Positions 20,339-53,108 of a stretch of DNA of 64,000 nt are shown here, piece after piece. Position 1 is the stretch's first letter. Every line of letters starts with the position of its first letter. Source of the stretch: Candidatus Bathyarchaeota archaeon (GTDB lineage: Archaea > Thermoproteota > Bathyarchaeia > 40CM-2-53-6); contig CAVTBR010000003.1 in assembly GCA_963733055.1 (NCBI GenBank), positions 32,001 to 96,000 on the forward strand, read 5' to 3'. The notes beneath the pieces are model-generated. The model made no database searches, was not told the origin of the DNA, and worked only from the letters and a program-made list of their open reading frames with translations. The position numbers were made by a program, and so were the translations under genes.

Positions 20339-20788
20339 ACGGCTAGACTATACACAAGCAAGCGGGGCAAGTCAGGGTCTACGCGACCAATTAGCAAGAA
20401 AACGCCTTCGTGGGTCAAGTATACGCCAGACGAGGTTGAGTCATTAGTCCTCAAGCTTTCCCGGGAAGGCAATACAGCGAGTACGATTGGCGTTTTGATG
20501 CGTGACCGATATGGAGTACCCTTAGTGAAATCGATCACGGGAAAGAATGTTCAGGAAATACTGAAACCTGGTCGACAGGCCGGAACCCTCCCAGAAGATT
20601 TGAGCGCGCTGCTCAAGAAGGCTGACGACCTGAGACGTCACCTAGAGAAGAATCGGAAAGATCACGTAAACAAACGTTCTCTCGCAATGATCGAATCCAA
20701 GATTCACAGGCTAGAGAAGTATTACAGGGTTAAAGGGCAACTCAGCCCAGAATGGCATTACAAACATGTCGTCGCGTCAGTGGCATAA
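20339..20788 (+). CDS. rps15: 30S ribosomal protein uS15 (apparent ACG start)
   Basis: In frame upstream of called ORF: (ACG)ARLYTSKRGKSGSTRP...; LPEDL, ESKIHRL..YY. Confidence 0.93.
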   Translation, partial: TARLYTSKRGKSGSTRPISKKTPSWVKYTPDEVESLVLKLSREGNTASTIGVLMRDRYGVPLVKSITGKNVQEILKPGRQAGTLPEDLSALLKKADDLRRHLEKNRKDHVNKRSLAMIESKIHRLEKYYRVKGQLSPEWHYKHVVASVA

Positions 20789-20791
20789 TAA

Positions 20792-22236
20792 ATGCCTGGG
20801 GACGGACAACGAGGCGCTTTCCTTGAACGCGCAAAAGAAGCCTGCGGAAGTAATTAGGAAACACCTACAAGCGGACTCAACTTTTACAGCAATATCCCAT
20901 AACGATGCAGACGGCCTCTCTTCGGCCGGCATCATCGGCGCTGCTCTTACACGCGCCTCCGCTCGCTACAAGGTACGAATAGTAGAAGAGCTTCGCGAGG
21001 ACATTATTGACGAAATATCCGCTGGGAAACCTGACATCGTAATCTTCACGGACATTGGTAGCGGCTATTCGGAACTCGTAAACTCACGTCTTGAGGCCAA
21101 AGAAGTAGTCATTTTAGACCACCACCCACCCGACGGCAAGGCGGGACCGAAGATTGCTCAACTAAATCCACATGAATTCGGAATCGACGGCGCAACCAAG
21201 ATCAGCGCAGCGGGGGTAACATACTTGGTCGCGAGAGAGCTCGACGAAGGGAACAAAGACCTCAGCACACTCGGGATCGTAGGAGCGCTGGGTGACATGC
21301 AAGATAAGAACGAACGGAGAGCACTCGCAGGCCTCAACCAACTCCTGGTTGATGATGCCGTGTCATCCGGGAATGCGAAGGTTGACTCCGACCTCGTTGT
21401 GTATGGCAGAGAAACTCGCCCAATATACCGCGCCCTAGCCTATACGACCTCGCCCTACCTCCCAAACCTAAGCGGTCGGGAAGATAACTGCCTCCTGCTA
21501 CTATCGAAGGCGGGGATTCCTGTAAAGGAAGGGGACCGCTTCAGAACCGCTGCCGACCTCTCGCAGGAAGAGAAACAGAAACTCCTCAACGGCATAATTG
21601 CCTACCTTACATCCCAAGGCTTCCCCTCAAACGTAGTGCTCGATATGGTGGGGACCGTATACACATTCATCAACGAACCGCAGGGAAGTCCGACTAGAGA
21701 TGCACGAGAATTCTCCGCCCTGCTGAAACGCGTGTGGAAGAACAGGCAACCCTTCAATAGGTATTAGCATTGGACTAGGGGATCGAAATACCGCCCTAAC
21801 CGAAGCCACCGAAGTCGTCGCCACCTACCGGAAGACTTTGGCCACCTACATGGAGTGGTTAACAAAATCTCCGGATGCAATCCAGAAATTCAAGATAATC
21901 TGGGCTATCCGAGGGGAGAACCAGATACAAGAGAGCATGACCGGAGCCTTCTCATCGATCATATCCTCAGCGGGTAATCTGACTCCGGATCACGCTATAA
22001 TCGTCGTAACCAGAGCAAAGGATGGCGGAATCAAACTCTCAGCAAGAGCTCCCGCGAAACTGCTAGCCATGGGCATGAACCTTGGCGCAGCGCTGAACAG
22101 CACGGCGAAGAAGTACGCTGGCATCGGAGGAGGACATAACGTGGCAGCTGGCGCCCACATCAAGACAGATGACCCAGTTCCATTCCTTGAAGAACTCGAT
22201 CAAGCCCTCCTCGCGCAGCTGAAGACAAATGTATGA
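20792..22236 (+). CDS. RecJ/Cdc45-like DHH nuclease (GAN-like), split by frameshifts near 20840 and 21726
   Basis: HNDADG, DIG, LDHH, NPH, GDMQ, then LLNACGR in shifted frame, GGGHNVAAG; lies between rps15 and rps3ae as usual. Confidence 0.85.
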
Positions 22237-22477
22237 AACAGAAATTCGCATCCAATACTCATCAGCAATCTTCGCCAAAGCCGTGAAGAAGGCGTTATCC
22301 CCTGACGACAACATACCAAACAACAAATTGATCATATCGACAAGTGCAAACGGTCCAGTGCTCTCTGTTCGAATCAAGGGATGTCAGAAAATCGAAACGA
22401 TGCAACAAACCCTGCAAGATATCTTTCGCTGCATTCAAGCAACTGAGACATCACTGAAGAAAATTGGAAACCCCTAA
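22229..22477 (+). CDS. KEOPS Pcc1-family paralog
   Basis: 82 aa, ALSPDD motif, conserved position between DHH nuclease and rps3ae. Confidence 0.7.
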   Translation: MYETEIRIQYSSAIFAKAVKKALSPDDNIPNNKLIISTSANGPVLSVRIKGCQKIETMQQTLQDIFRCIQATETSLKKIGNP

Positions 22478-22557
22478 CCACCGCTCGCTAGCTATGAACG
22501 CTTTAAATAAGGCACAAACGGTACGTTGCCAAAATCTGAAGTCCGAGTGGAAGACTA

Positions 22558-23196
22558 TTGTCCAAAGCCTCGAAAAAAGTCAGAGACAAGTGGCGATTGA
22601 AGGAATGGTACGATGTCTACACCCCACCCTACTTTGGAGAAAACGTTGTCGCCAGCATACCCTGTGAGCTCCCCACAGCTGTAATCGGCCGCGTAGTCGA
22701 AACAACGTTGTATGATATTACAAACGATTTTGCTCACCAATCGATCAAACTGTACTTTCTGGTCGTCAATACGAAGGAGCATAGGGCTGATACGATACTG
22801 AAATCGCACGAGTACGCCACCGATTATCTAAGAAGCCTTGTGAGGCGCGGAAGTACTCGAATGGACGGCATCTTCAACGCAACTACAAAGGACCAATACT
22901 CGACACGGATTTCAGTGGTTGCGTTCACGCGTGATAGAATCAATGCGTCACAGGAACACGGTGTCCGCCAAATTATGCGCCAGATTGTTGAAGAGAAGGC
23001 TAACACTCTGAATTACGATCAATTATCGCAAGAAGTCGTTCTGGGCAAACTTGGATCAGATATTTACAATCTTGCGAAGAAGATCGCCCCGCTCAGGCAT
23101 GTGGGGGTAAGGAAATCAAGAGTCCTTTCGATACCGCCTGGAGTCATGGCTACCCCCGCCCAAGTCATGGAACAGGCCAAGGCTGCAGCAGCCTGA
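22558..23196 (+). CDS. rps3ae: 30S ribosomal protein eS1 (S3Ae)
   Basis: RDKWRLKEWY, GRVVETTL, DYLRSLVRR, KKIAPLR. Confidence 0.95.
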   Translation: MSKASKKVRDKWRLKEWYDVYTPPYFGENVVASIPCELPTAVIGRVVETTLYDITNDFAHQSIKLYFLVVNTKEHRADTILKSHEYATDYLRSLVRRGSTRMDGIFNATTKDQYSTRISVVAFTRDRINASQEHGVRQIMRQIVEEKANTLNYDQLSQEVVLGKLGSDIYNLAKKIAPLRHVGVRKSRVLSIPPGVMATPAQVMEQAKAAAA

Positions 23197-23206
23197 TCCA
23201 AGTCGA

Positions 23207-23479
23207 TCAATGCGTCGAGCGCTTGTACATTCGTCTGATTTCCTCATGGATCGCGTCGAGTTCGCGACGGAGCTCGACAGCTTTAGCTTTTGAACCAGGA
23301 TCTTTCGCGCTATCGGGCGAAGATAGGTTGGCGCCGAAAGTGTCGATCTCCCGAGCCAGATGTCGGATGCGCTCCTGCAGATCAGCTGTCTTCTCAAGGC
23401 TGTAAAGAGTCCCGGCGAGTGCACCGGTGAGACCGCCCGCAGCAATTCCGGCAAGGAAAGAGAGAACATCAAATGCCAT
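23207..23479 (-). CDS. Small membrane-anchored coiled-coil protein
   Basis: Gly-rich N-terminal TM (SFLAGIAAGGLTGALAG) followed by heptads. Confidence 0.55.
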   Translation of the reverse strand: MAFDVLSFLAGIAAGGLTGALAGTLYSLEKTADLQERIRHLAREIDTFGANLSSPDSAKDPGSKAKAVELRRELDAIHEEIRRMYKRSTH

Positions 23480-23589
23480 GCCTAGACCACAACATCCAGC
23501 AAACCTTGCCATGCATACTCCAATTTAAAACGCTCAGGAATACAATTACGAGGGATGAGGGTGTTGGTCTGGAAGATCGGTGAGAGAAT

Positions 23590-24888
23590 GTGAAAGCGGT
23601 TGTTCTAGCGGCAGGGGAAGGAACTCGCATGTGGCCTCTTGCCACTACCAAACCCAAGCATCTTCTCTCCATAGCGGGGCGGCCGATTATCGGATTCGTT
23701 CTTAAAGCGATCTCAGAGAACCGGATTAAGGATGTCTTGTTGGTTGTCGGTTTCAAGGGAGAGTTGATGCAGGATGTTCTCGGCGACGGGGGGACCTACG
23801 GGTTAAACATCGAATACCTACGTCAACGCGATTGGACTGGGACGGCGTCGGCGTTAAGAGTTGCTCGCGACGCGGTGGGCACCGAGCCCTTTCTCGCCAT
23901 ATATGGAGATTTGTGGGCAAACGCAACAAGTATTGGCGGTGTTGTCGAGAAGGCTCGAGAATGCTCAAGGGTTATGGGGGTCGTGCAGATGCCGAACCCC
24001 TCGGAATACGGGGTTGTCGAGCTGAAAGGCGATAGAGTTGTAAGAGTTCAAGAGAAACCCGCGAAGAGGACAACGGTGGAGGCGTGGGTAAACGCCGGAA
24101 TATACGTTCTAGACGATCAAGTATTCCGTGCGATTGAAGAAACGTCGTGGTCGAAAAGGAACGAATACGAGCTAACCACCTCGTTACAACGGTTGATCGA
24201 TAATGGACAAGACATCAAGGCGGCGACAATCGATCGAGAAGATTGGATGGATGTGGGTAGGCCGTGGGATCTTCTCGAAGCGAATGAAAGAACGCTAATG
24301 AATTTCACCCCCAGAGTTCGCGGAGTTGTCGAACCAGGGTCAACGATGAAAGGGCCTATTTGCCTTGAAGAGTCGGCCACGATCAAATCAGGGTCCTACA
24401 TTGAAGGGCCTGTATACATTGGCGAAAGAAGCAGGGTCGGTCCGAACGCAAGAATTAGACCTTGCACGAGCATCGGAGAGGACGTTGTAATCGGAGCCTC
24501 CTGTGAGATCAAGAATAGTGTGATCATGAACGGCACTAAGATTCCACACCTCTCCTATGTTGGCGACAGTGTGATTGGCGAGAACTGTAACATTGCCGCC
24601 GGGACGATAACAGCAAACATACGTCTGGACGAACAACCAATCATGGTGAGCGTGAAGGGACGGACGCTAAGTTCGGGGAGGAAGAAACTCGGGACGATTA
24701 TGGGAGACCAGTCGCAAACCGGAATTAATACGAATATCATGCCGGGAGTCAAAATTGGCCCCTTTGCACACGTTGGTCCGGGAGTCACTGTATACGAGGA
24801 CGTGCCGACGGAGCATGCGGTTTTCGTGAGGCAGACACTTATCAGTAAACTGATGAAGAAACGCGGCATAAGGAAGCGTCACGCTTAG
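23590..24888 (+). CDS. Bifunctional sugar-1-phosphate nucleotidyltransferase/acetyltransferase (archaeal GlmU-like)
   Basis: LAAGEGTR, PK, EKP, hexapeptide repeats, HLSYVGDS. Confidence 0.9.
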   Translation: MKAVVLAAGEGTRMWPLATTKPKHLLSIAGRPIIGFVLKAISENRIKDVLLVVGFKGELMQDVLGDGGTYGLNIEYLRQRDWTGTASALRVARDAVGTEPFLAIYGDLWANATSIGGVVEKARECSRVMGVVQMPNPSEYGVVELKGDRVVRVQEKPAKRTTVEAWVNAGIYVLDDQVFRAIEETSWSKRNEYELTTSLQRLIDNGQDIKAATIDREDWMDVGRPWDLLEANERTLMNFTPRVRGVVEPGSTMKGPICLEESATIKSGSYIEGPVYIGERSRVGPNARIRPCTSIGEDVVIGASCEIKNSVIMNGTKIPHLSYVGDSVIGENCNIAAGTITANIRLDEQPIMVSVKGRTLSSGRKKLGTIMGDQSQTGINTNIMPGVKIGPFAHVGPGVTVYEDVPTEHAVFVRQTLISKLMKKRGIRKRHA

Positions 24889-26096
24889 GCGTGTCTTTTT
24901 GTGCTCGTTATCGAGACGACATCTCTATCCTTCAATACGTAGTCATCGGCGAGCCGCATCTTTGACCTTGCTTCAGTAGCGTAAAGGAAACCTTCGGCTA
25001 AGTCGGAATGTATCATTGAAGCGAATTGTTTCGCTGTCGTTCCGTAAGGAACCAGGTAGGCGTCGGGTAGGACCCTGCCCTTATGGTCAGTCAGTTTCTC
25101 GGGGTCTTCAACGGGGTATATTGTTATCATTTGCAGAAGTTTGAAGAACGCTAAGTTGAGGGATTCTTGGACTCCTGTCGAACCAAATGGAAGGAGAACT
25201 TTTTCTTTTATCCGTGTCAACGCATTCAACTGGTCTGTATTCGGCGGATTCTTTTCGTTCACTTTGAAGTTGCTGTCTCCGGGGAGGTAGGTTACGATAC
25301 CTTTCTCAGCGGCACGTCTTAGGGCTAGCTCGGCTTCCGCACAGCAGGGCACCACCATGTGGCCCAGATCGCTCAAGGATTTCAGGTTGTTTTCGGCTGG
25401 GGGGACATCCATTTTGTTTGCTGCAATTAGGAGCGGTTTCGATTTGCTGCGCAGTTCACTGACCAAACGCAAAATGTCATCATCGGACCAGGAGCTGGGT
25501 TTCTCGAAGTTCAGGCTGGTCTTCCCTTTCGCCGAGATTAAATGGTCCCTGCGTATTCCGAGGCCGCTTAGTTTGTCTTCGAGGATTGTTATGAGGTCTT
25601 CCTTAGGGCCTTCGACTCGTCTAACAGCACGATCCCATTCCTTCTTGATGATTTGCAGAAGCCACATATCCAGTTCATGTTCAAGAAATCGAACGTCTTC
25701 CCGCGGGTTGTGTGTGCCCGCGTCGCATGTTTTTCCCTCGGAATCCGTTGAACCCGACGCATCGACGACGTGGATGAGGGCGTCGGCTTGTCGTATCTCA
25801 TCTAGAAACTGATTTCCGAGGCCTCGGCCCTGCCAAGCCCCTGGAACAAGTCCAGCACAATCAACAATCTCAACCGGCACGAGTCTAATTCCATCGATAC
25901 ACGTGGAATTGCCAGGCGTGTCCGTTACATTGAACTCTCGACAGACACATGGCGTTCGAACGTATCCCATCCCAATGTTTGGTTTGATCGTGGTGAAAGG
26001 GTAGTTTGCGATGGCTACGTGCGCTAGAGTGGCAGCGCTGAAGAATGTGCTCTTTCCGACGTTAGGTTTTCCTACAACACCCACTATGCGCGGCAA
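24885..26096 (-). CDS. ychF: Obg-family NTPase YchF with TGS domain
   Basis: GKPNVGKST, YPFTT, GLVPGA, GLGNQFL, NKMD, IHSDL. Confidence 0.9.
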   Translation of the reverse strand: MPRIVGVVGKPNVGKSTFFSAATLAHVAIANYPFTTIKPNIGMGYVRTPCVCREFNVTDTPGNSTCIDGIRLVPVEIVDCAGLVPGAWQGRGLGNQFLDEIRQADALIHVVDASGSTDSEGKTCDAGTHNPREDVRFLEHELDMWLLQIIKKEWDRAVRRVEGPKEDLITILEDKLSGLGIRRDHLISAKGKTSLNFEKPSSWSDDDILRLVSELRSKSKPLLIAANKMDVPPAENNLKSLSDLGHMVVPCCAEAELALRRAAEKGIVTYLPGDSNFKVNEKNPPNTDQLNALTRIKEKVLLPFGSTGVQESLNLAFFKLLQMITIYPVEDPEKLTDHKGRVLPDAYLVPYGTTAKQFASMIHSDLAEGFLYATEARSKMRLADDYVLKDRDVVSITSTKRHA

Positions 26097-26115
26097 ATCA
26101 TATTTTCCTACAACA

Positions 26116-26805
26116 TCAACCCTTGTTGACTGGGATCCCGGTGATTCGTATTCCTGCGGCGTTTACTTTGTATCGAATGTTTATTCCAATTAGAAGGGCC
26201 GTGATCTGTTCGACGATTCGAGAGTTCTCTAAGCGTCCTCCATCAACCGCTCTGACTCCAGGTATTTTCGTTGCGAGTTCCATTACCGACTTTCGTGTCT
26301 CCTGAGAATCCCCACAAACGATAACGTCTGAATCCACATTCTTTCCGATGTCTTGAAGGGCTTCGGCGACCACGTTGTGGAATGCAGAAGCAACCTTCGT
26401 GTGAGGAGGAAGTAATCTTGCCGCCTGTTGCGCTGCCGAGCCTTCCCAAACTCCGAGGGCGGTAGAAGCGGACCCTCCAACGGCCGTTGTGAGTGGAACG
26501 ACGACGTCGACGAAGATATCGTCCAGTTGAATGCTGTCGTGTACTGATTTGATCATATCCACGTGAGCCGCGAAGGGGACGGACATTACTATAATATCAG
26601 CCGCAGCGGCCGCCTTAGGATTTTCCATGCCCGAGACGTTCGCCTTCTCCCCTAGAGCAGTCCTAGCTTTCTTGGCTGCGTCTTCAGCTTTTTGCAATTG
26701 CCTCGATCCTATAATTACCTTCTCACCGGCCTTAGCCCAACGTAAAACTAAACCGAATCCTTGATCTCCTGTTCCGCCTATCACCGCAATAGTGCGTTCG
26801 GTCAT
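26116..26805 (-). CDS. npdG: F420H2:NADP+ oxidoreductase (Fno/NpdG)
   Basis: IAVIGGTGDQGFGL, IGSR, SVPF, GSAAQ, AFHN, GIRITG. Confidence 0.9.
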   Translation of the reverse strand: MTERTIAVIGGTGDQGFGLVLRWAKAGEKVIIGSRQLQKAEDAAKKARTALGEKANVSGMENPKAAAAADIIVMSVPFAAHVDMIKSVHDSIQLDDIFVDVVVPLTTAVGGSASTALGVWEGSAAQQAARLLPPHTKVASAFHNVVAEALQDIGKNVDSDVIVCGDSQETRKSVMELATKIPGVRAVDGGRLENSRIVEQITALLIGINIRYKVNAAGIRITGIPVNKG

Positions 26806-26898
26806 GTTACAGTCCTTCAAAATCGTGCCCAAAGGAATTCGCAATTAAAGGCTGACTGTTCAAGCCCATTCTTGAATATCCTGGCAAGGTGCCTCGAT

Positions 26899-28230
26899 TT
26901 ACGTGGGGAAGTCCTGGATAAATCCGCCACGCATCATGTATCTCGTCTGTTCGCGTGCTCGCTTGATGATAGATCTGGCGCTCTCGTAAACTTCCTGTCG
27001 AGTTCTCTTCAGTCTGGCGACTCCTTGCTCAACCGCCTTCTCGGCGACAGCCGTCGCTTCGCGCGGAAATACTTCCCAATCATCCATTGTCGGAATGATG
27101 TTTTTCGCGGACAACCCCCGTTCCTCGGCAAGTTTAGCGAGTTCAGCCGCCGCTGCCAGGCACATTTCATCGGTAATGGTTCGTGCGCGTACGTCAATTG
27201 TTCCCCTGAATATTCCAGGAAACCCTAGCGAATTGTTTAGTTGGTTTACAAAATCAGAACGTCCAGTTGCGACAACAGCGGCGCCACTCTCCTCTGCCTC
27301 CCATGGCCAGATCTCGGGTACGGGGTTCGCGCATGCGAAGATGATTGCCTTGTCAGCCATTTTTGAGACGAAGTTCCTAGTTATGACGCCGGGTCCGGGT
27401 GTCGACAGTGCGATGCATGCATCAGCTCCAACCATGGAGGCTTCGATGCCACCTTCCCGTCCCTCAGAATTGGTATCTTGACAGAGTTTCCATTTCTTAG
27501 GCGTGTTTTGTAAGTCCTTCCTGTTTCGGTGGAGTGTGCCTTTGCTGTCTACGAGGATCATGTTTCCTGCCCTAGCACCAGATAGTATTAGTAAACGTGC
27601 CAGTGCGACGTTGGCTGCTCCAGCTCCAATCATTGAGATCTTTACGTCTGATACCTTCTTTCCGACAACCTTGAGGGCGTTTATGAAACCGGCTAGTACC
27701 ACGGTGGCTGTGCCTTGTTGGTCGTCATGCCAAACGGGTATGTCTAGCTGCTTCTGTAGAGTGTCAAGGATTTCGAAGCATTTCGGCTGGGCTATGTCTT
27801 CAAGGTTTATTCCTGCGAATGATGGTTTGATCCATTTAACTGCCGAGATAATTTCTTCTGGTTTCTTGGTACCTAGGCAGATGGGAAATGCGTCTATTCC
27901 GCCCAAGTATTTGTAGAGCAAGGCTTTGCCCTCCATGACCGGGAGGCCTGCTTCGGGCCCGATGTCACCGAGGCCTAAAACGCGGGATCCATCGGTAACG
28001 ATGGCTATTGTATTCCATTTGTTCGTGTTCTCGAAAACAGCTTCAGGTCTGGCTTTGATCTCATCGCAAGCCTCAGCGACACCAGGGGTGTACCATATCG
28101 CGAAATCGTCGAAGGACCGAACTGGAACCTTGGGTACGATTTCGATTTTTCCACGATAGAATGGGTGATATTTTTTCGCTAGTTGAGCTGGAAGGTATGC
28201 TTTCCGAAGAGACTCCTCGTCTGATGTCAT
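26899..28230 (-). CDS. NAD(P)-dependent malic enzyme
   Basis: YTPGVA, VLGLGDIG, MEGK, NLEDI, HDDQQGT, GAGAA, NPVPE, ATGRSD. Confidence 0.93.
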   Translation of the reverse strand: MTSDEESLRKAYLPAQLAKKYHPFYRGKIEIVPKVPVRSFDDFAIWYTPGVAEACDEIKARPEAVFENTNKWNTIAIVTDGSRVLGLGDIGPEAGLPVMEGKALLYKYLGGIDAFPICLGTKKPEEIISAVKWIKPSFAGINLEDIAQPKCFEILDTLQKQLDIPVWHDDQQGTATVVLAGFINALKVVGKKVSDVKISMIGAGAANVALARLLILSGARAGNMILVDSKGTLHRNRKDLQNTPKKWKLCQDTNSEGREGGIEASMVGADACIALSTPGPGVITRNFVSKMADKAIIFACANPVPEIWPWEAEESGAAVVATGRSDFVNQLNNSLGFPGIFRGTIDVRARTITDEMCLAAAAELAKLAEERGLSAKNIIPTMDDWEVFPREATAVAEKAVEQGVARLKRTRQEVYESARSIIKRAREQTRYMMRGGFIQDFPT

Positions 28231-28357
28231 GGTTTTGATTCCGCTTACTTGTTTGCAAGCCGCTTAAATAGCAGCGCGACTTTTCACATTGCTTGAAGTT
28301 CAGAGACGCGTCATTTGTCTTAAAGTTAAGCTTCGAAAAGGTTGGTCGAAATTTACA

Positions 28358-28789
28358 ATGGGTGCCCAGAAATATCTTACTCATACATGGTTGGGACGTG
28401 AAAAGGGTGACTTACAGCTTTACCTTCGTCAGCTCGCGATAGTGTGGCGGCGCGAACCTACCGTTCACAGAGTCGAGCATCCGACTAGGCTGGATCGGGC
28501 GAGGACGTTGGGGTACAAAGCGAAACAGGGCTACGTAGTTGTCAGGGTTAGGATAAGGAAGGGCGGGGCACGCAAACCGCGACCCAGATCGGGGCGTAGG
28601 CAAAAAGCCTTGGGAGTCACGAGATTCACGCGCGCAATGAGTCTGAAGAACATCGCGGAGGAGAAAGCGAGAAAGAGATATCCAAACCTTCGAGTACTCA
28701 ATTCATACTACGTCTGGGAAGACGGAAGGCATCATTGGTATGAAACCATCATGCGGGACCCACACAACCCCGTATCCAAGGAAAACTGA
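28358..28789 (+). CDS. rpl15e: 50S ribosomal protein eL15, C-terminally short
   Basis: PTRLDRARTLGYKAKQG, AEEKARKRYPNL.VLNSY; ATG at 28358. Confidence 0.93.
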   Translation: MGAQKYLTHTWLGREKGDLQLYLRQLAIVWRREPTVHRVEHPTRLDRARTLGYKAKQGYVVVRVRIRKGGARKPRPRSGRRQKALGVTRFTRAMSLKNIAEEKARKRYPNLRVLNSYYVWEDGRHHWYETIMRDPHNPVSKEN

Positions 28790-28842
28790 AACCGGCCAAA
28801 GTCCACGTAGTAAGTCCTGCTGATTCCTAGAGGTTTTCGTAT

Positions 28843-29205
28843 CTACAGTAAGGACAATTCGCCCGTGATCTTGTCAACAAGCTCTGCTGGTGCGGGGCCG
28901 ATTCCGACACAAGTCGCCGTTCCCGGGTCTATCTGAGTTAAGCCGCTGTCATGAATAATCGTCGCTACCAATCCTAACTCCTCTGCATCTCTCTTGAGAT
29001 GTTCAAGGTCACTCTCGGTATTCACCTTGACCACGATTTTGCGTTGTCCTTCCTCAAACCATTGCTTCCACCATTCTGGGTGTCGTCTCCTGGTTTCTTC
29101 TGCCGCGGTTACTGAAGCATGGCTGACTTGAACCGCGATCTTTCCCTTGCCCATCTCCAGGTCACGCCTAACCGCAATGGCTAATTTGTACTTGAAATCG
29201 CTCGT
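28843..29205 (-). CDS. pth2: Peptidyl-tRNA hydrolase Pth2 (apparent ACG start)
   Basis: (ACG)SDFKYKLAIAVRRDLEMGKGKIAVQVSHA, KIVVKV, DSGLTQ, GIGP. Confidence 0.93.
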   Translation of the reverse strand, partial: TSDFKYKLAIAVRRDLEMGKGKIAVQVSHASVTAAEETRRRHPEWWKQWFEEGQRKIVVKVNTESDLEHLKRDAEELGLVATIIHDSGLTQIDPGTATCVGIGPAPAELVDKITGELSLL

Positions 29206-29270
29206 GGTTTAATCCTCGGCTTTATCTTGTCGCTGTCCCAAATAAGCGAAGAGATGGGCGGTAAGCTTTC

Positions 29271-29735
29271 TTGAAGTCGGGCCAGAGTATCCAGACAATT
29301 GAGATAAGCACCATTGCTCATGCAACAGATGACTTGGACAAAGTACAGCAAGCATTAGCACGTTTAGTCCCTGATTCACTGAAAAGTCGACAGCTATTCA
29401 CGCGTCGTTACATGCAGGGTCACTACGGCAACCCTATAGTGACGTTTGAAGCCCGGCTCACAAAAGGATCGGAAATTGACGAGTTTACAACCTTCCTTCG
29501 GAGCCAACTCGCACACAAGGACAAACTCACAATTCAGCGAGACCTAAGCCTTTATTCTGACGGTGACGGGAATCTTTACATTCGCATCGATAAGCAAAGT
29601 TTGTTTCGCGGAATCGTGCAGCTCGGAGAAGAAGACTCGATTAGAGTGCGAATGAAATTCACTAGGTTCACGGGCCAAGCCTCTGACCTGATGATCAAAT
29701 ACCTGGAGTCGGAAGAGAACTGTCAAACTTCGTAG
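29271..29735 (+). CDS. Predicted RNA-binding protein of the exosome/RNase P superoperon
   Basis: HATDD, GHYGNPI, YIRIDKQ motifs. Confidence 0.82.
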   Translation: MKSGQSIQTIEISTIAHATDDLDKVQQALARLVPDSLKSRQLFTRRYMQGHYGNPIVTFEARLTKGSEIDEFTTFLRSQLAHKDKLTIQRDLSLYSDGDGNLYIRIDKQSLFRGIVQLGEEDSIRVRMKFTRFTGQASDLMIKYLESEENCQTS

Positions 29736-30430
29736 ACCTCCATATCCTCCCCAAAGTCGATGACGCGAACGAGTGCGCGCGTGTCGCTCAAATCCTCAAG
29801 GCTGCGGGCTACTCGACCGTAGGGCTTACGATCCCTACTGGCCTTCTGGTTGAGCGTGTCAATTCTATTCGACGAATATTTGAAGATCAAGGAATTGCAA
29901 CCGCGCTTCGGATAGATGTCGGATCCCCTTCTAGAATGGAACTGCTCCGATCGCTTCGGAGATTCAGAAACGGCTACGATATAGTCGGGGTGAAGTGTGC
30001 GAATCCCCGGGTTGCAACAGTTGCATGTAGAGACCGGAGGGTTGATGTTGTGTTCTTCGATCCCTTTTTGCGAGGTGTGCGATTCAGTCATTCTCTTGCA
30101 CGCCTACTTCATGGTGCCCTCGAAATCAACTTGATCGCCGACATACTCTCGTCAACCGACGGCGGTATCCTGTCTAGAATGCGGAAGACTATCGCCGTTG
30201 CCCATGAGCATAACGTGAAAGTCGTGTTATCGAGTGGAGCGAGAACGGCCGAGATGGTGAGAAGTCCGATTCAGTTAAGTGCCATCGCCTCAACCCTTGG
30301 GCTCGGAGGAGCGGTCTCGATGGGCGCGGTGTCAATAGTGCCGGCGTCCATCATAACTGAGAATGCTGAGAAGCGGAAGCCCGAGTACGTGGAAGAAGGC
30401 GTGAGAATAGTTGTATCATCACGGCGTTGA
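29720..30430 (+). CDS. rnp3: RNase P protein Rpp30 (apparent CTG start)
   Basis: (CTG)SNFVDLHI in frame with called ORF; RVDVV, LEIN, LSSGA, RSP. Confidence 0.82.
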   Translation: MSNFVDLHILPKVDDANECARVAQILKAAGYSTVGLTIPTGLLVERVNSIRRIFEDQGIATALRIDVGSPSRMELLRSLRRFRNGYDIVGVKCANPRVATVACRDRRVDVVFFDPFLRGVRFSHSLARLLHGALEINLIADILSSTDGGILSRMRKTIAVAHEHNVKVVLSSGARTAEMVRSPIQLSAIASTLGLGGAVSMGAVSIVPASIITENAEKRKPEYVEEGVRIVVSSRR

Positions 30431-30433
30431 GCT

Positions 30434-31753: not shown

Positions 31754-32439
31754 GTGAAAAATTCACTACGGCTCGAATCTCAAAAAGCGGAGAAAAATTC
31801 GAAATCCTGGTTAAACCCGACCCTGCATTAGAGTACAAGATGGGAAAGCAGCTAGGCATATCCCAGCTCCTAGTCATAGACGAAGTCTACACCGACGCGG
31901 GGAAAGGCACTCACGCCTCCGCGGAAAAACTACAGAAAGCCTTCGGCACGGAAGACCCGGTTGCGATTGTGGAAGAGATAATGAAGCATGGCGAGCTTCA
32001 ACTCACCACAGACCAAAGGCGTCAATTAGTCGAGGACAAGCGCAAGCAGATCATTGCCTTTGTCGCCAGAAACTGCATCGACCCAAGAAGTGGGACGCCC
32101 CATCCACCAATACGCATCGAACAGGCAATGAATCAGATCAAGTACTCCATTGATCCTTTCAAGAACGCCGATGAACAAGCGAAGGATGTGATAGAGGAGC
32201 TCAGGACACTTCTACCGATCAAGATGGAGCAGATGCGTGTCGCGATTAAGATTCTTGCGGAATTTGCGCCTAAGGGGTATGGAGCGGTTAAGGGATATGG
32301 GACGATCAGCAGGGAGGAGTGGCAGGCCGATGGGGCGCTCGTTGCGGTGGTTGAAATGCCCGCTGGCCTTTATGGGCCGTTCGTTGAGAGGCTTGGCAAG
32401 ATCACTCAGGGTACAATTCAGACAAAGATACTGAAGTAG
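31750..32439 (+). CDS. Ribosome maturation factor SBDS
   Basis: KFEILV, FGT, GELQLT, PHPP.RIE; follows psmA. Confidence 0.93.
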   Translation: MSEKFTTARISKSGEKFEILVKPDPALEYKMGKQLGISQLLVIDEVYTDAGKGTHASAEKLQKAFGTEDPVAIVEEIMKHGELQLTTDQRRQLVEDKRKQIIAFVARNCIDPRSGTPHPPIRIEQAMNQIKYSIDPFKNADEQAKDVIEELRTLLPIKMEQMRVAIKILAEFAPKGYGAVKGYGTISREEWQADGALVAVVEMPAGLYGPFVERLGKITQGTIQTKILK

Positions 32440-37267: not shown

Positions 37268-37286
37268 CTAATCCAGGTGTTCCACC

Positions 37287-37775
37287 TTAAACACCCTCAT
37301 CGTTGACGTAGCCGTTCCCGACGGTTGCAATGTCATCTTTGGACAAAGCCATTTCATCAAGACGGTAGAAGACCTTCACGAGGCCATGGTCAACGCCGTT
37401 CCGAACGCGAAATTCGGGATCGCGTTCTGTGAATCGAGCGGACCTTGCCTGGTTCGATCAGAGGGAAATGACCCTGACCTTAAGCAGTTGGCCTCGAAGA
37501 CTGCGCTTCAGCTCGCGGCTGGACATAGTTTCATAATATTCATGCGCAACATGTTTCCAATAAACGTCCTCGACAAGGTGAAAGCTGTCCCGGAAGTTTG
37601 CAACATCTACTTGGCCAGCGCAAATCCTTTCCAAGTCATCTTGGCCGAAACGGGCCAAGGACGTGGAATCCTAGGAGTCGTCGATGGTTTCGCATCTAAA
37701 GGAATCGAGACGGAAAAGGACGTCCGAGATAGGAAGGATTTCCTTAGGAAGATCGGTTACAAGCTTTCAACTTGA
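37287..37775 (+). CDS. DUF355 adenosine/AMP-binding (adenosine-specific kinase family) protein
   Basis: In-frame extension [16 protein letters not shown] upstream of called ORF; FCESSG, GVVDG, IGYK; start codon unclear. Confidence 0.85.
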
Positions 37776-43209: not shown

Positions 43210-43221
43210 GGTAATGTCCGC

Positions 43222-44858: not shown

Positions 44859-44860
44859 GC

Positions 44861-45085: not shown

Positions 45086-45102
45086 GGAGACGCGTCTGAG
45101 AG

Positions 45103-45297: not shown

Positions 45298-45308
45298 GCC
45301 CGTTAGCG

Positions 45309-45767
45309 TTGGAAACGGAGCAGACGTTTTCTTTTCTTAAGCCCGAAAGCGTCATGAGAGGGTTTGTTGGCGAAATCGTCTCTCGATTTGAGAAAAAGGG
45401 TCTCGTCTTGGTCGGCGCAAAGTTGATTCAAATGTCGAGAGAGCAGGCCGAAAAGTTGTACGGTGTGCACAAGGGTAAACCCTTCTTCAATGAGCTTGTG
45501 TCTCATGTCACGTCCGGACCTGTCTTCTTGATGGTTTGGGAAGGTCCGAACGCTGTCACGGTTGTTAGGAATCTAGTGGGAGCCACGAATCCACTCAACG
45601 CGGCGGCTGGAACGATTCGGGGGGACTTTGCTCTTCAAGTAACTCCAAATGCTATTCATGGGGCTGATTCGCCGGAGAACGCCAAACGGGAAATGTCAAT
45701 CTTCTTCTCAAGTAGTGAGTTTACGAAATATTCCAAACCGACGGAACGCGAATTCTTGCTAAAATGA
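45309..45767 (+). CDS. ndk: Nucleoside diphosphate kinase
   Basis: [32 protein letters not shown]; TTG start. Confidence 0.95.
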
Positions 45768-45768
45768 C

Positions 45769-47548: not shown

Positions 47549-47768
47549 ACATCTCACGCACGGATGATATTTTCATACAAGCGTAGAAGCAGTTTGCCCT
47601 TAAACTTTGCACGGATTAGAACGTTGTTTGCGGTGCGAGGCCTGCTTTTCCATAGTAGGGATTGCTTACTATCGTTGTTCCGAACTCATCGGGTGAGAGT
47701 ACCGTTCTATTTCAGTTGCGGCCATCAACTTAGCACAAAATCGCTTAGGAATGACACGTTAGTCGTTT

Positions 47769-49652
47769 TCACCTGATCAGCCTTGCAGAGTTGAGAATGA
47801 AGATAAGCTCGGAGACAACATGTATTCCCGCAGCCAAGAGCGGGCTCAGGAACCCTAAGAATGCAAGAGTGACGCCTATTCCATCTACGACGACTGTTCC
47901 ATAGAAGTTTGTCATTATTGTGCGATAGGCTTTCTTACTCAGCCTTGCAACGTCTGCAATCTTTTGAAGGTCATTCGTCATCAGAACTATGGCTGCTTCT
48001 TCAATTGCAACGTCAGTTCCAGCTCCCATTCCGATTCCGACGCTAGCCCGCGCTAGTGCGGGCGCGTCGTTGATGCCGTCGCCAGCCATCGCGACTCTGT
48101 GGCCTTCAGCGACGAGCTTTTCGACTAGAGCAACCTTGTCTCCTGGGAGCAATTCTGCGTATACTTCGTCTATCCCTACTTCGTTCGCTACGATCTGAGC
48201 CGCGACTTTGTTGTCGCCTGTGAGCATTATCGTTTTTATTCCCATGTTTCTTAGGTCTGTCATTGCTTTTCTGCTCTCGTCTCTAATTCTGTCGGCGACA
48301 GCAATGAGCCCACATACCTTGTTCTCGTGGGCGACGTATACCGCAGTTTTTCCTTGAGCGGCCTGCGTCGTCGATATGGACAGGGCCTCCCGCGAGATTG
48401 CAATACCTTTCTCACGCAGCAAAGTACCGTTGCCGACTAGGATGCTATGTCCCTCACTTTCTACGGCAACTCCCTTACCCGGCACGTAACTGAATGTTGA
48501 GTGTGCGATTCCCCTCACGCCAAGCTCTGAAGCTTTTTCGACGATCGCACCCGCAATCGGGTGATTCAGGTACCGTTCTGCGGTTACTGCAAATTGAAGT
48601 ACTTGTTGAGTGTTACAATTGTCTACCGCTGTCACATCCGTAACGATAGGCGTGCCAAAAGTCAATGTTCCAGTTTTATCAATTACAACTGTGTCTATGC
48701 GGCTCATTTCCTCGACATAGACCCCTCCCTTGATGATGGCCCCTCGCTTTGCCGCCTTGCCCATGATCGCAACTATCGCGAGCGGAGTTCCTGCAGCAAC
48801 TCCACACGCACCGGCAACCACAATGACCGAAAGCGTTGACGTCAGGTTTCTCGTAAGCAAAAAGGTGAGGACAGAGAAACCAATCGCAAATTCAACCAAC
48901 CACGTAGCAAGCCGGTCCGAAGTCTTCTGTATGGGGGCCTTCTTGTTTTCCGCCTCCTCCACGAGTTTAATGATCTTTCCGAATAAGGTCTCGCTACCAA
49001 CCTTGGCCGTCCGCACCTCGACAATGCCTGATTCATTTACGCTTCCGGCGTAAACCGTATCCCCACTACTCTTCTCAACTCTTGCTGATTCGCCGGTCAT
49101 CATGGATTGGTTGACGAATGCTGACCCAGCGACAATCGTTCCGTCCACGGGTATGCGCTCGCCATCCCGCACAATGACGACATCGTTCGGTTGGAGCGAT
49201 TCTATGTCAGCTTCAATTTCGGTATCGTTACGTCTAACAAGGGCTCTCTTTGGGTCTGACTTTTCGAGCAGAGTTATGGTTTGCCGTCCTTTATCGACTG
49301 CATAGGTCTCGATGTACTCTGATAGGAGGACGAAGAATGTGATTACCACCGACACGGTATACTGCCCGACAATAAGCGAAGCTAGGATCGCAACGGTCAT
49401 GGACACCTCCATATTCACGTGACCATGTCTGAGCGCCCCGAATGTTTCTTTGTAAACTGGGTAGCCGCCCGCTAAGGTCGCGAGTATGGCAATGAAGTCG
49501 ATCGGTAGGAACGTATGCCATATTCCGACCCAGCTGAGCAGCGCGGCAACGCCCATGAACGAAAGTCGTAGCAGCTCTCGCGACGTGTTCCCTTTGTGTT
49601 CTTCCTGTGCCTCATCGTCTTCTTTACTTCTCTCCTGCTTACTGCTCATCAC
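47769..49652 (-). CDS. P1B-type heavy-metal ATPase with GACG TM motif
   Basis: TGES, DKTGTLT, HP, MLTGD, GDGINDAP; VVAGACG in place of CPC; no N-terminal HMA domain. Confidence 0.92.
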   Translation of the reverse strand: MMSSKQERSKEDDEAQEEHKGNTSRELLRLSFMGVAALLSWVGIWHTFLPIDFIAILATLAGGYPVYKETFGALRHGHVNMEVSMTVAILASLIVGQYTVSVVITFFVLLSEYIETYAVDKGRQTITLLEKSDPKRALVRRNDTEIEADIESLQPNDVVIVRDGERIPVDGTIVAGSAFVNQSMMTGESARVEKSSGDTVYAGSVNESGIVEVRTAKVGSETLFGKIIKLVEEAENKKAPIQKTSDRLATWLVEFAIGFSVLTFLLTRNLTSTLSVIVVAGACGVAAGTPLAIVAIMGKAAKRGAIIKGGVYVEEMSRIDTVVIDKTGTLTFGTPIVTDVTAVDNCNTQQVLQFAVTAERYLNHPIAGAIVEKASELGVRGIAHSTFSYVPGKGVAVESEGHSILVGNGTLLREKGIAISREALSISTTQAAQGKTAVYVAHENKVCGLIAVADRIRDESRKAMTDLRNMGIKTIMLTGDNKVAAQIVANEVGIDEVYAELLPGDKVALVEKLVAEGHRVAMAGDGINDAPALARASVGIGMGAGTDVAIEEAAIVLMTNDLQKIADVARLSKKAYRTIMTNFYGTVVVDGIGVTLAFLGFLSPLLAAGIHVVSELIFILNSARLIR

Positions 49653-49684
49653 TAAGGTCTTCCCTTTCTATTGGCGTGCATCAC

Positions 49685-49948
49685 TCATCGAGTTCTGGCA
49701 ATAACTTCCTGAAGTTCAAGAGCCGCCTCAGAAGCAGACTTGTTCTTCCCAGATTTTGCGACGCAGTCTTCTACCAAATCTTCAACGATAATCTGCACCG
49801 CACTGTCTAACCCTGCCTGTACAGCAGAGATCTGCTGGACAACCTCAGAGTAGGACCTCCCCTGCTCAAGCATTTCCATTATTCCGTGCACGTGGCCATG
49901 AATTCGGGCAATCCTCTTGGCCACATCATCCCTCTTGTGCGACGACAT
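49685..49948 (-). CDS. CsoR/RcnR-family repressor
   Basis: KRIARIHGHVHGIMEM, QISAV..GL; directly upstream of P1B ATPase. Confidence 0.88.
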   Translation of the reverse strand: MSSHKRDDVAKRIARIHGHVHGIMEMLEQGRSYSEVVQQISAVQAGLDSAVQIIVEDLVEDCVAKSGKNKSASEAALELQEVIARTR

Positions 49949-49952
49949 ATCC

Positions 49953-49971
49953 TATCCTAGGGGGGAGGATA
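49953..49971. promoter_or_regulatory. CsoR/RcnR-type operator
   Basis: TATCCT-AGGGGGG-AGGATA inverted repeat around a G tract, 4 nt from the repressor ATG. Confidence 0.7.
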
Positions 49972-50246
49972 CGAGCAGGAGGGATATAACTCAATCCCAT
50001 GAGCTTGTCAGGCCTGCAGGAGCGAACACATTCATCGGTTCAAGAGTCGATGGCAAATGGAGTTATGTTATAGGGATCAACAGCTTTGCTCTGGACCAAT
50101 CCCGGTCCAGAACGGCACGCGAGGTCATGTCAAGGCGCAAGGCGAAGTAACAGCGTGGAACATTTGGAATAAGACGCCGAAAGTATGCACGATGTTTTTA
50201 CACGAGTCAGATTAGCTTTCGCACTGGGTTCTACGGGGCTATAGCG

Positions 50247-53108
50247 CTGCAACAACTCAACGTCTTCGACGAACTCGCCAAACCATTACGCGACGCCATA
50301 GTTGAACGTGGGTTCGCGTCCCCGACAAACCCACAGCTCCGGGCCATTCCCGAAATCCTAGCAGGTAAAAACGTCCTTCTGATCTCGCCAACTGCTTCCG
50401 GAAAGACGGAGGCAGCCGTTCTTCCAGTTCTCAGCAAGTACATCGCCGACCGTGGCGAGGACCGTGGGATCAAGATTCTGTACATCACTCCGCTGCGGGC
50501 CCTGAACCGAGACATGTTGGAACGGTTTGAATGGTGGGGAAAGCGACTCGACGTGCGGATTGCAGTTAGACACGGCGATACGGACGTTAAGGAACGGAGT
50601 TTTCAAGCAAAGAACCCGCCCGACATGCTAATCATAACACCTGAGACACTTCAAGCAATATTGACTGGGAGGGTGATGAAGCGTCATTTACAATCTGTGA
50701 GATATCTAATCATCGATGAAGTTCATGAATTAGCGGAGGATAAGCGGGGCACCCAACTTACAATAGCAATTGAGCGGCTAAGAGGTGCCGCCAATCATGA
50801 CTTTCAAATGATCGGTCTATCTGCAACCATTGGCTCCCCAGAGAAAGTTGCAAAATTCCTAGTTGGAAACGGCAGGGAAGCTACCATCATTCAAGTTCCC
50901 GTCGGACGAGAAATCCGCCTCAACGTGATCTGCCCCAAACCTACACCAAAAGATACCGCCCTGGCTTCGAGGTTATTTACACACCCGGAAGTCGCGGCAC
51001 GTCTAAGCATTATGCGCAAAATGATCGAGGACCATCGTTCCGTCATATTGTTCACGAACACACGTTCCATAGCCGAAATTCTTGCCAGTCGTATGAAGGT
51101 TTGGGACGTGGATTTCCCTGTCTCAATCCACCATGGCTCCCTAGCAAAACCCTCTAGGATTAGCGCTGAGCGCGGCCTGAAGGGGGGGCAACTTCGAGGA
51201 CTCGTAGCAACTTCTTCCCTTGAACTTGGAATTGATGTTGGAAGCGTGGACTTTGTAATTCAATACATGAGCCCGAGACAGGTCACTCGATTAATTCAAA
51301 GGGTGGGAAGAAGCGGGCACAGAATTGGCAGAGTTGCCGACGGAGTAATCGTTGCACTCGATTCGGATGATACCCTCGAATCTATGGTCATCGCCAGACG
51401 TGCTCTTGCCGAAGAGTTGGAGCCCGTTTCCATCCCAGAGAAACCCCTCGACGTCCTTGCCCATCAACTGGTAGGGTTGCTGATTCAGAAGGGTAGGTGG
51501 TACCTTAACGAAATCATGGAACTCGTGACTAAGGCCTACCCGTACAAGGACCTGACAGAACAGGAACTGCTTGGGGTGATTAACTACATGCACTCCCGTT
51601 TTCCCCGTCTAGCCTGGTATTCAGACTTGGACAAGGTTATGCTTCGACCTAGGAGAATCAACTCCCTTTACACATACTACTTCGGAAAGCTCTCGATGAT
51701 TCCGGACGAAAAACAGTACCTGATCATAGACGAATCGGACGATCAAGCTGTCGGTGTACTCGACGAGGCTTTCGTGGCCGAATACGGCGAACCTGGCCGA
51801 AAATTCATCGTTCGCGGGAGTCCTTGGAAAATGACAAGCATTCGAGGGGACAAAATCTACGTGAAACAAATCCGAGATCCGACGGGCTCGATTCCAAGCT
51901 GGATAGGCGAAGAAATCCCCGTCCCTTATGAGATTGGTCAGGAAGTCGGCTCAATAAGACGGAGGGCAGAGGAATCAATTCGAGTTAACGGAGGGGATAG
52001 TGAACTAATCGAGGAACTATGCGCTGATTACCCGATCAACGCTGAGACCATGCGCCGATCCCTAAGCGAAACCCTCGAACAGATATCACTCGGAATCAGC
52101 GTCCCAACGGATAGGCGTGTAATAGTCGAGGACTGGGACGACTTTGTCATCATACACGCACACTTCGGGCTGTTAGTAAACAGAACACTCGCTCGATTAG
52201 TGGGACACTTGCTCTCGGAAGAGATCGGCGTCACAATCGGAGTACAACAGGATCCCTACCGAATATTGATACAGACATCGGGCTCCGCAGGAGCAACTAA
52301 GGTCGCGGATACTTTGAGGCAGCTTGGGAAAATGGAGATCCAGAACTTAGTCCTTGAATCGACCAAGAAAACAGGTCTCTTCAAACGACGCTTAATTCAT
52401 GTGGCCAAACGGTTTGGCGCAATAACGAAATGGGTTCAGACCGGAAGCGTGAACCTTCGCCAGCTAATGAAGAGCTTCGAAGGAACAGTCATCATGGATG
52501 AAGCTTTCAAGGAAACTTTAGAGAAGGACCTTGACGTCGCCAACACTGTCAGGGTTCTTCAACAGATAGGCAACAACCTGGAGCTGCTAGTGGCCCCTCA
52601 GTCACCCGACGCTAGCCCAATCGCCCGGATCGGGATTGAGAGAATAAGCAGAAAGACAGACCTAATCCCACCTGAGAAGATGAGGCGGATTCTCATCGAG
52701 TCAACGAAGGTGAGAATCCTTAACGAATTTCGGACATTGGCATGCCCGAAATGTTTTGTCTACGCACAGATACAACGAGTGAAGGACATGCCAGACGACT
52801 TCACATGCCCAGAGTGCAAAAAAGCCTGTCTCGGAATCACGGCTGAACTACCGGAAGCAATTGAAAAAATACACCTCAAGAAAACACACAAACTGTCTGA
52901 ACGAGAAGGGAGAATTGTCGAAGACCTCAAAGGAAGTGCCCTGCTGCTACGGAAATACCGTAAAGTTGCAGCTTATGTGATGGCCGGTAGAAGAATTCGC
53001 CCTTCTGAGGCGAGAGTGGTACTCAGGCGAACCGCAAAGGTTTCGGACCGGCTCTTTGAGGGGATTATGGAAGCGGAAAGGAAGGTGCTGCGACGCCGCT
53101 TTGTATAA
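50247..53108 (+). CDS. lhr: Lhr-type SF2 helicase with C-terminal Zn ribbon (non-canonical start)
   Basis: Q motif and SPTASGKT lie in frame upstream of called ATG; DEVH, SAT, HHGSL, SSLELGID, QRVGRSGH; CPKC...CPEC. Confidence 0.9.
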   Translation: MQQLNVFDELAKPLRDAIVERGFASPTNPQLRAIPEILAGKNVLLISPTASGKTEAAVLPVLSKYIADRGEDRGIKILYITPLRALNRDMLERFEWWGKRLDVRIAVRHGDTDVKERSFQAKNPPDMLIITPETLQAILTGRVMKRHLQSVRYLIIDEVHELAEDKRGTQLTIAIERLRGAANHDFQMIGLSATIGSPEKVAKFLVGNGREATIIQVPVGREIRLNVICPKPTPKDTALASRLFTHPEVAARLSIMRKMIEDHRSVILFTNTRSIAEILASRMKVWDVDFPVSIHHGSLAKPSRISAERGLKGGQLRGLVATSSLELGIDVGSVDFVIQYMSPRQVTRLIQRVGRSGHRIGRVADGVIVALDSDDTLESMVIARRALAEELEPVSIPEKPLDVLAHQLVGLLIQKGRWYLNEIMELVTKAYPYKDLTEQELLGVINYMHSRFPRLAWYSDLDKVMLRPRRINSLYTYYFGKLSMIPDEKQYLIIDESDDQAVGVLDEAFVAEYGEPGRKFIVRGSPWKMTSIRGDKIYVKQIRDPTGSIPSWIGEEIPVPYEIGQEVGSIRRRAEESIRVNGGDSELIEELCADYPINAETMRRSLSETLEQISLGISVPTDRRVIVEDWDDFVIIHAHFGLLVNRTLARLVGHLLSEEIGVTIGVQQDPYRILIQTSGSAGATKVADTLRQLGKMEIQNLVLESTKKTGLFKRRLIHVAKRFGAITKWVQTGSVNLRQLMKSFEGTVIMDEAFKETLEKDLDVANTVRVLQQIGNNLELLVAPQSPDASPIARIGIERISRKTDLIPPEKMRRILIESTKVRILNEFRTLACPKCFVYAQIQRVKDMPDDFTCPECKKACLGITAELPEAIEKIHLKKTHKLSEREGRIVEDLKGSALLLRKYRKVAAYVMAGRRIRPSEARVVLRRTAKVSDRLFEGIMEAERKVLRRRFV

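Follow-up and report, generated by a model that had tools for sequence, protein, structure and literature searches.

In eukaryotes and their viruses, the methionyl initiator tRNA (Met-tRNAi) can initiate translation at the near-cognate codons CUG and ACG, and in plant organelles ACG start codons are edited to AUG. Here we present evidence that ACG and CTG (CUG in the mRNA) very probably serve as genuine, heritable start codons in a genus of Bathyarchaeia. The evidence comes from five conserved genes (encoding uS15, Pth2, Rpp30, DUF355, and Lhr) in a stretch of 64,000 nucleotides (nt) from an uncultured soil or sediment archaeon (the window; positions 32001 to 96000 of contig C3 of the genome under study, G000) and from a wider comparison of homologous starts. 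ATA is probably an occasional start codon in the same lineage, and TTA is perhaps one as well. We found no published description of ACG starts in archaea, judging mainly by titles and abstracts, and to our knowledge the table-11 list of start codons does not include ACG.

Initiation at CUG has been described for human cells (PMC4705826). For bacteria, the available part of a study of Deinococcus reports conserved CTG and ATC starts that were proven by N-terminal proteomics, naming ATC for dnaA and CTG for rpsL in Deinococcus and ATT or ATA for infC, and it cites Aeropyrum pernix for TTG-dominated starts (PMC2830850). A study of annotated starts in 36 clades gives about 3 x 10^-5 switches to CUG per AUG, and ACG goes unmentioned in the part of it that is accessible (PMC5622118).

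The G000 assembly has a length of 2.88 Mb in 3 contigs (GC content 0.505, zero N) and is 96% complete; the window holds an archaeal exosome/RNase P/ribosomal-protein neighbourhood. With ATG, GTG, and TTG taken as canonical starts throughout, no canonical codon lies between the preceding in-frame stop and the odd codon at any of the five sites (Table 1). The first canonical codon is found 17 to 91 codons into these genes (89 to 91 in Lhr), and the family profiles start 2 to 6 residues after the odd codon (28 in Lhr). For Pth2, DUF355, Lhr, and Rpp30, as well as for uS4 and 11 further G000 genes, no canonical start can supply the conserved N terminus. ACG, CTG, and ATA are each one base off AUG, and the TTA of DUF355 is two bases off. 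An initial annotation of the window had placed the uS15 and Pth2 starts at ACG, with GGAG and GAGG upstream and a TAA two codons before that of Pth2, the Rpp30 start at CTG, and, as a possibility, the DUF355 start at a TTA that follows AGGTG by 7 nt after an in-frame stop, and it had noted that the conserved N terminus of Lhr precedes the first canonical codon; all of these readings hold in the sequence.

Orthologous loci were taken from the genomes of 30 relatives, of which 18 belong to this genus and 12 to other genera of the order; all are independent assemblies of different species, and six start sites (the five above and that of uS4) were aligned in 29 to 31 genomes each. In this alignment of orthologous starts, a check that had been set beforehand, relatives share ACG or CTG and others have a canonical codon at the same position. 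Since ACG or CTG recurs at the same codon in 11 to 13 species of the genus, a sequencing or polishing error is ruled out, and with it the ATG-to-ACG errors that the initial annotation had left open (ACG stands at the uS15 and Pth2 starts in 11 genus genomes each); its proposal that start-codon choice is relaxed in this lineage is supported by the same recurrence. The exact codon is also kept, with ACG in 11 of 11 uS15 cases and CTG in 13 of 13 Rpp30 cases; in G000, ACG makes up 27% of threonine codons and CTG 17.6% of leucine codons. The three codons that follow the uS15 ACG take 2 to 4 synonymous forms each in the same genomes. An invariant ACG or CTG beside synonymously varying neighbours thus behaves as a start codon and not as a sense codon.

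Translated from ACG, residues 2 to 60 of uS15 correspond to positions 2 to 60 of the Ribosomal_S13_N profile. In G000, the 27 in-frame codons back to the preceding stop include no ATG, GTG, or TTG, and a canonical codon is first reached downstream at TTG 20495, 52 codons into the gene. At the aligned start, the genus (n = 18, including G000) has ACG in 11 genomes, TTG in 3, ATG in 3, and TCG in 1 (G008, a broken gene), and the other genera (n = 12) have TTG in 9 and ATG in 3. The ACG is forced in G001 by a stop two codons upstream and in G000 and G011 by the lack of any in-frame canonical codon. A GGAGnGTG motif before the gene is kept across the genus irrespective of the start codon; because its GTG varies in frame and distance among species and is present also where the start is ATG, it appears to act as part of the ribosome-binding site. 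The uS15 match in G008 (L030, G008:C16:90351-90784) falls into pieces with TGA and TAG inside, possibly through a frameshift or an assembly fault. In genus g14, the uS15 gene (L269, G132:C1:35377-35820) has TTA at the aligned start, and three codons before it GGAGTGTG contains a GTG in the same frame; either codon may be the start.

For Pth2, residues 6 to 120 of the translation from ACG correspond to positions 1 to 115 of PF01981, and the first canonical codon downstream is ATG 29154. ACG is the start in 11 of the 19 genus genomes; five have TTG followed by ACG, ACT, or GCA, one has TTG, and two have GTG. A canonical codon lies within four codons of this position in 10 of 11 genomes of other genera (G019 was not resolved). 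A stop two codons before the ACG forces the case in G000, G013, and G007. The codon at the threonine position drifts (ACT, ACG, GCA) where a TTG stands directly upstream and is always ACG where there is no such TTG.

None of the 11 codons between the in-frame TGA at 29684 and the CTG of Rpp30 is canonical, and the first canonical codon downstream is ATG 29936. The genus (n = 19) has CTG in 13 genomes (in G017 after the correct frame was chosen by eye), GTG in 1, and TTG in 5; the other genera (n = 11) have ATG in 8 and TTG in 1, with two not resolved. The Rpp30 gene of G017 (L075, G017:C6:79884-80516) contains one internal TGA, possibly reflecting a frameshift or an assembly fault. The overlap of the preceding PF01877 gene with Rpp30 may help initiation through translational coupling; Pth2 heads its own unit, however, so coupling is not a general explanation.

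The DUF355 gene encodes a predicted adenosine-specific kinase. Its TTA stands five codons after TAA 37269, the first canonical codon is ATG 37386, and residues 6 to 159 of the translation from TTA correspond to positions 1 to 154 of PF04008. At the aligned start, the 19 genus genomes have TTA in 2 (G000 and its sister G013), CTG in 1 (G001), and a canonical codon in 16. The 13 codons after the TTA differ between G000 and G013 by 5 synonymous and 2 conservative changes, and this mostly synonymous pattern indicates that the N terminus is translated. The initial annotation had considered an indel after GTG 37277; this is refuted by the sister genome, since the GTG lies in two different wrong frames in G000 and G013. 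The shift in the distance of AGGTG from the TTA between the two genomes indicates that the embedded GTG behaves as a Shine-Dalgarno element.

In Lhr, an in-frame TAA at 50148 precedes ATA 50241 and CTG 50247, the DEAD domain starts at residue 28, and the first canonical ATG (50514) lies past the GKT Walker A motif, 89 to 91 codons in. The aligned start in the genus (n = 17) is ATG in 13 genomes, TTG in 2 (by eye), ATA in G000, and ACA in G013. The ATG of the relatives aligns with the G000 ATA, and both G000 and G013 keep a CTG two codons later. CTG 50247 is more likely to be the start than ATA 50241, because it is the only one of the two that G013 shares and it follows the G-rich motif by 8 nt.

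Table 1. Coordinates of the genes, upstream motifs, and aIF1 paralogues discussed (window positions unless a contig is given; G000:C3 and G000:C1 are contigs of the genome under study)
Feature	Position	Strand	Remarks
uS15 (S13e/S15P) gene	20339..20788	+	ACG at 20339-20341; Pfam Ribosomal_S13_N match from residue 2
GGAG, Shine-Dalgarno-like	20324..20327	+	11 nt before uS15 ACG
Pth2 (peptidyl-tRNA hydrolase 2) gene	28843..29205	-	ACG at 29205-29203, TAA ACC directly before
GAGG, Shine-Dalgarno-like	29214..29217	-	8 nt before Pth2 ACG
PF01877 RNA-binding protein gene	29271..29735	+	TTG start; 3' end overlaps Rpp30 start by 16 nt
GGAG	29705..29708	+	11 nt before Rpp30 CTG
Rpp30 (RNase P subunit) gene	29720..30430	+	CTG at 29720; PF01876 from residue 5
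AGGTG Shine-Dalgarno motif	37275..37279	+	7 nt before DUF355 TTA in G000, 8 nt in G013
DUF355/adenosine-specific kinase (PF04008) gene	37287..37775	+	Homologous start codon TTA 37287
GGGG (GAGG in G013)	50235..50238	+	8 nt before Lhr CTG
Lhr helicase gene	50247..53108	+	Likely start CTG 50247, alternative ATA 50241
aIF1 paralogue 1	G000:C3:220712-220930	-	134.1 bits against NCBIfam NF002096/PRK00939 (cut-off 98); CxxC...CxC knuckle
aIF1 paralogue 2	G000:C1:735391-735675	+	95 amino acids; 80.6 bits, below the NF002096 cut-off of 98 and above the Pfam SUI1 cut-off

The pattern extends beyond the window. TTG is the commonest start among 963 high-confidence G000 starts (TTG 396, ATG 384, GTG 183), in agreement with the TTG-dominated background described in the initial annotation. 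For a census of homology-defined starts, we used the whole 769-kb contig C2 of the relative G015, from which 521 open frames were paired with G000 as reciprocal best hits. At 251 unambiguous canonical G015 starts, the G000 codons were TTG 64, ATG 63, GTG 21, ACG 6, and CTG 5, so that ACG and CTG come next after the canonical codons; every other codon scores at most 4 (ATA 4), the remaining 92 cells being spread over about 58 codons. In the reverse direction, the G015 codons at G000 starts (n = 246) include ATG 70, TTG 65, GTG 18, and CTG 3. Solid ACG cases in G000 are a geranylgeranyl-reductase-like FAD protein, an ABC ATPase, uS4, a DEAD-box helicase, a DUF1512 protein, and a KaiC-like protein; solid CTG cases are a thermosome subunit, an Mrp/Nuo antiporter subunit, a 2-oxoacid:ferredoxin oxidoreductase, an XPD-like helicase, and an AAA_17 kinase. 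Further ACG, CTG, ATA, and ATC hits with an ATG one or two codons away were left out of the count, and no forced TCG, GCG, GTA, AAG, or AGG start was seen among the inspected G000 sample cases.

Roughly 5 to 8% of conserved genes would thus start at ACG or CTG. The sample gives 8 solid near-cognate starts against 148 canonical ones (about 5%), an estimate that is blind to genes with odd starts in both G000 and G015, and the window gives 5 of about 69 conserved genes (about 7%). Two other sources were set aside: recurrent TTA and CTG "starts" from automatic calling proved to be internal Met/Leu columns and were dropped, and 84 of the 521 pairs with homology at least 5 codons before the first canonical start were not used, being inflated by upstream-gene overlap and shadow frames. 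In a cofE-like gene (window 56270-57040), G000 has TTG 56276, and G001 (L237-L238) has ACG where five relatives have TTG or ATG.

The starts differ in age. The uS15, Pth2, and Rpp30 starts changed earlier in the genus; for uS4, DUF355, and Lhr, the change is confined to the branch of G000 and G013. The uS4 start, with a TGA three codons upstream, is ACG in G000 and G013 only, against ATG, TTG, or GTG in 27 other genomes, which argues that near-cognate starts are still being gained on a TTG-rich background.

A second line of evidence comes from the Shine-Dalgarno signal. The register in G000 is GGAGGTGA at about -14 to -7, and a 5-nt match is present at only about 8% of starts. An in-register run of at least 4 nt was found at 12 of 16 near-cognate starts, compared with 394 of 963 canonical starts (Fisher p 0.009), and a run of at least 5 nt at 6 of 16 compared with 134 of 963 (p 0.018). 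In an independent test on the stretches that run from an upstream stop to the nearest canonical codon after it, ACG and CTG were the two codons most often preceded by the 5-nt motif (23/516 and 20/500, respectively, against a mean of 714/33430). This enrichment fits a weak codon that is kept in the P site by pairing between mRNA and rRNA. In the mechanism that we propose, Shine-Dalgarno pairing (register GGAGGTGA, about 6 to 9 nt upstream) would put the near-cognate codon into the small-subunit P site, where the initiator Met-tRNA would accept it with one mismatch, and the protein would begin where its orthologues begin. We infer the use of the initiator tRNA, and hence of methionine, at ACG and CTG, as well as the efficiency of these starts and the reason for the lineage's tolerance of them.

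Several points weigh against near-cognate initiation or limit its reach. Species that belong to a single genus cannot be counted as independent samples. Eight of the 11 genomes with ACG in uS15 have an in-frame GTG 2 to 4 codons upstream, inside the GGAGnGTG motif, at which uS15 initiation is conceivable in those genomes, and Rpp30 has an ATG two codons upstream in G013 and a TTG three codons upstream in G006. The TTA of DUF355 mismatches the CAU anticodon of the initiator at two positions, for which simple near-cognate pairing is unfit. No recognisable Shine-Dalgarno motif is present at 4 of the 16 near-cognate starts, and the 963 canonical starts are a biased set for comparison, since they were required to have a stop within four codons upstream, often the TGA of GGTGA. 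The share of 5 to 8% rests on one relative's contig and manual review, and automatic start calling over 14 syntenic genomes was noisy. An unusual initiator tRNA is also conceivable, since none was found in G000.

One alternative is that the odd codons are ordinary sense codons, with translation starting at an in-frame canonical codon upstream or downstream, which would give extended or shortened proteins, or with some of the genes decaying. The upstream GTG of uS15 would suit it, as would public calls for the uS15 family of 153, 177, or 182 amino acids (as opposed to 149) and the ATG one or two codons away in sample candidates A396, A597, A1834, A1927, and A2002. Stops stand directly upstream, however, in Pth2 (3 genomes), uS15 (G001), uS4, the geranylgeranyl-reductase-like gene, and the ABC ATPase. 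One has to go 13 to 91 codons downstream, into conserved domains, to reach the next canonical codon, and the GTG of uS15 behaves as part of a ribosome-binding site. ACG and CTG never vary at the third position, although their neighbours are saturated with synonymous changes, and we regard a start elsewhere as quite improbable. Start-codon editing of the mRNA, in which ACG would become AUG and CUG would become UUG by C-to-U changes and AUA would be read as AUG and UUA as UUG after A-to-I changes, is also unlikely, if slightly less so. ACG, CTG, ATA, and TTA are each one deamination-type transition from ATG or TTG, and conservation of the exact codon fits editing equally well. Yet the same codon set would result from single transitions from canonical starts followed by a filter of near-cognate pairing, and enrichment for strong Shine-Dalgarno motifs would be expected if the codons were weak but not if they were edited. 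Editing also predicts GCG and TCG starts, of which no forced case was found, albeit with small numbers. We know of no mRNA C-to-U editing system in archaea. A search for the organellar DYW deaminase family (PF14432), which matched none of 14 control genomes, gave no match in G000 either and so speaks neither for nor against editing.

The least probable of these alternatives appears to be initiation by a specialised or altered tRNA with full complementarity to ACG, CUG, or UUG, either a second initiator with a changed anticodon or an elongator tRNA for threonine or leucine, in place of mismatch pairing by the standard initiator. TTG as the commonest start and TTA at one start would be in line with such a tRNA, as would the failure to find the initiator tRNA among heavily interrupted tRNA genes. 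ARAGORN reported 7 tRNAs in G000 without introns and 33, partly dubious, with introns allowed, and the Rfam tRNA model found 13. No convincing initiator tRNA was detected in G000 by ARAGORN, Rfam, or searches for an initiator-like anticodon arm, an A1-U72 acceptor, and a T-arm, because most tRNA genes of G000 are interrupted. The tRNA with anticodon CGU (G000:C1:223557-223665), on the other hand, has two insertions and an elongator-like G1-C72 acceptor end, and genes that resemble an initiator but carry a different anticodon were not encountered. Weak mismatch pairing also agrees better with how few starts are ACG or CTG and with their dependence on a Shine-Dalgarno motif. An encoded CCA follows most tRNA 3' ends in the T-arm scan of G000.

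If near-cognate initiation is taken as the best account, its cause may lie in the initiation machinery. The factor aIF1 destabilises archaeal initiation complexes on non-AUG codons, according to the available part of one study (PMC6237735). Two genes with a SUI1 domain are present in G000 and in 13 of its 18 genus relatives, whereas the 12 genomes of other genera all lack such a pair. Paralogue 1 is the canonical zinc-knuckle aIF1 and hardly varies within the order; in paralogue 2, the N-terminal cysteine motif and zinc knuckle are missing and the basic loop 1 is different. Among 120 genomes drawn from the class, paralogue 2 was found in 4 of 4 genomes of the sister genus g12 and in none of the other 116, which include genera g13 and g14 of the same family; within this draw it is thus confined to the family. 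The initial annotation had proposed aIF1 as a place to look for change, and a divergent paralogue was indeed found there; three genomes of g12, however, have canonical uS15 and Pth2 starts despite carrying it, so the link to aIF1 is weak. As a cause, paralogue 2 is a weak lead that rests on a single phylogenetic event. It is possible, though doubtful, that a family-wide loosening of P-site proofreading made ACG and CUG efficient, regular starts through changed initiation machinery, for which the second aIF1 paralogue or an unusual initiator tRNA among the intron-ridden tRNA genes would be candidate causes. Were this so, the set of start codons would be an evolvable, lineage-specific part of the archaeal genetic code.

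Other observations concern the window, the contig, and sequencing material. Lineage-specific insertions are suspected, by appearance only, at window positions 12837-18000 and 47772-49954. Open frames there, such as 13317-15143 (- strand), 15241-16605, 16629-17951, and 47769-49652 (- strand), are matched in no more than 2 of 13 syntenic relatives, compared with 8 to 12 for the flanking genes, and no match is listed among these 13 for 13317-15143 and 16629-17951. Near 187.6 kb of G000:C3 (- strand), ATG CGT TGA is followed in frame by a conserved protein, and G015 has ATG CGC TCC there; an in-frame TGA, a start shift, or a broken gene is possible. When four DNA runs were compared with positions 20200-30100, contig shares were at most 0.17; X2 to X4 were about 90% relatives, and coverage of the start codons in X1 was not clear.

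For annotation, gene finders that are restricted to ATG, GTG, and TTG or to the table-11 list truncate or over-extend such genes. The N termini of uS15, Pth2, Rpp30, DUF355, Lhr, and uS4 in G000 would be cut by 17 to 91 codons (89 to 91 in Lhr), as the initial annotation had foreseen in predicting truncation. It had not foreseen over-extension, which also occurs: public calls for the uS15 family have 149, 153, 177, or 182 amino acids, and the 182-residue call, from G013, has the length expected if translation began at an ATG that precedes the ACG by 33 codons. If our interpretation is true, the eukaryote-like initiation core of archaea can work with near-cognate codons as a normal mode on highly expressed genes, which bears on the evolution of start-codon stringency between archaea and eukaryotes. 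A defined gene set and a clade with graded usage would allow tests of what aIF1, the initiator tRNA, and the Shine-Dalgarno motif each contribute.

Compared with known systems, the genomic ACG found here exactly at the place of the start codon resembles editing in plant organelles, a system that includes neither CTG, ATA, and TTA starts nor Shine-Dalgarno enrichment. Near-cognate initiation in eukaryotes and their viruses likewise prefers CUG and ACG, which each mispair with CAU at one position. It differs in that the codon here is positioned by a Shine-Dalgarno motif and not by scanning, and in that it is the sole start of housekeeping genes, including those of ribosomal proteins, and not an alternative or regulatory one. 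The archaeal initiation core of aIF1, aIF1A, and aIF2 is homologous to that of eukaryotes, as stated in the available part of PMC6237735. As in the bacterial cases, the starts are conserved among related species, occur in essential genes including one for a ribosomal protein, and were missed by annotation; the bacterial cases, in the part of the report available, amount to a handful of genes per genome with ACG unmentioned (PMC2830850), whereas here about 5 to 8% of conserved genes appear to be involved and ACG is as common as CTG. As in the TACK archaeon Aeropyrum pernix, TTG outnumbers ATG (396 against 384 of 963 starts here), but the Aeropyrum report, as cited in that part of PMC2830850, concerns canonical alternatives only and describes no ACG or CTG starts, whereas the Bathyarchaeia genus described here very probably adds ACG and CTG to the set.

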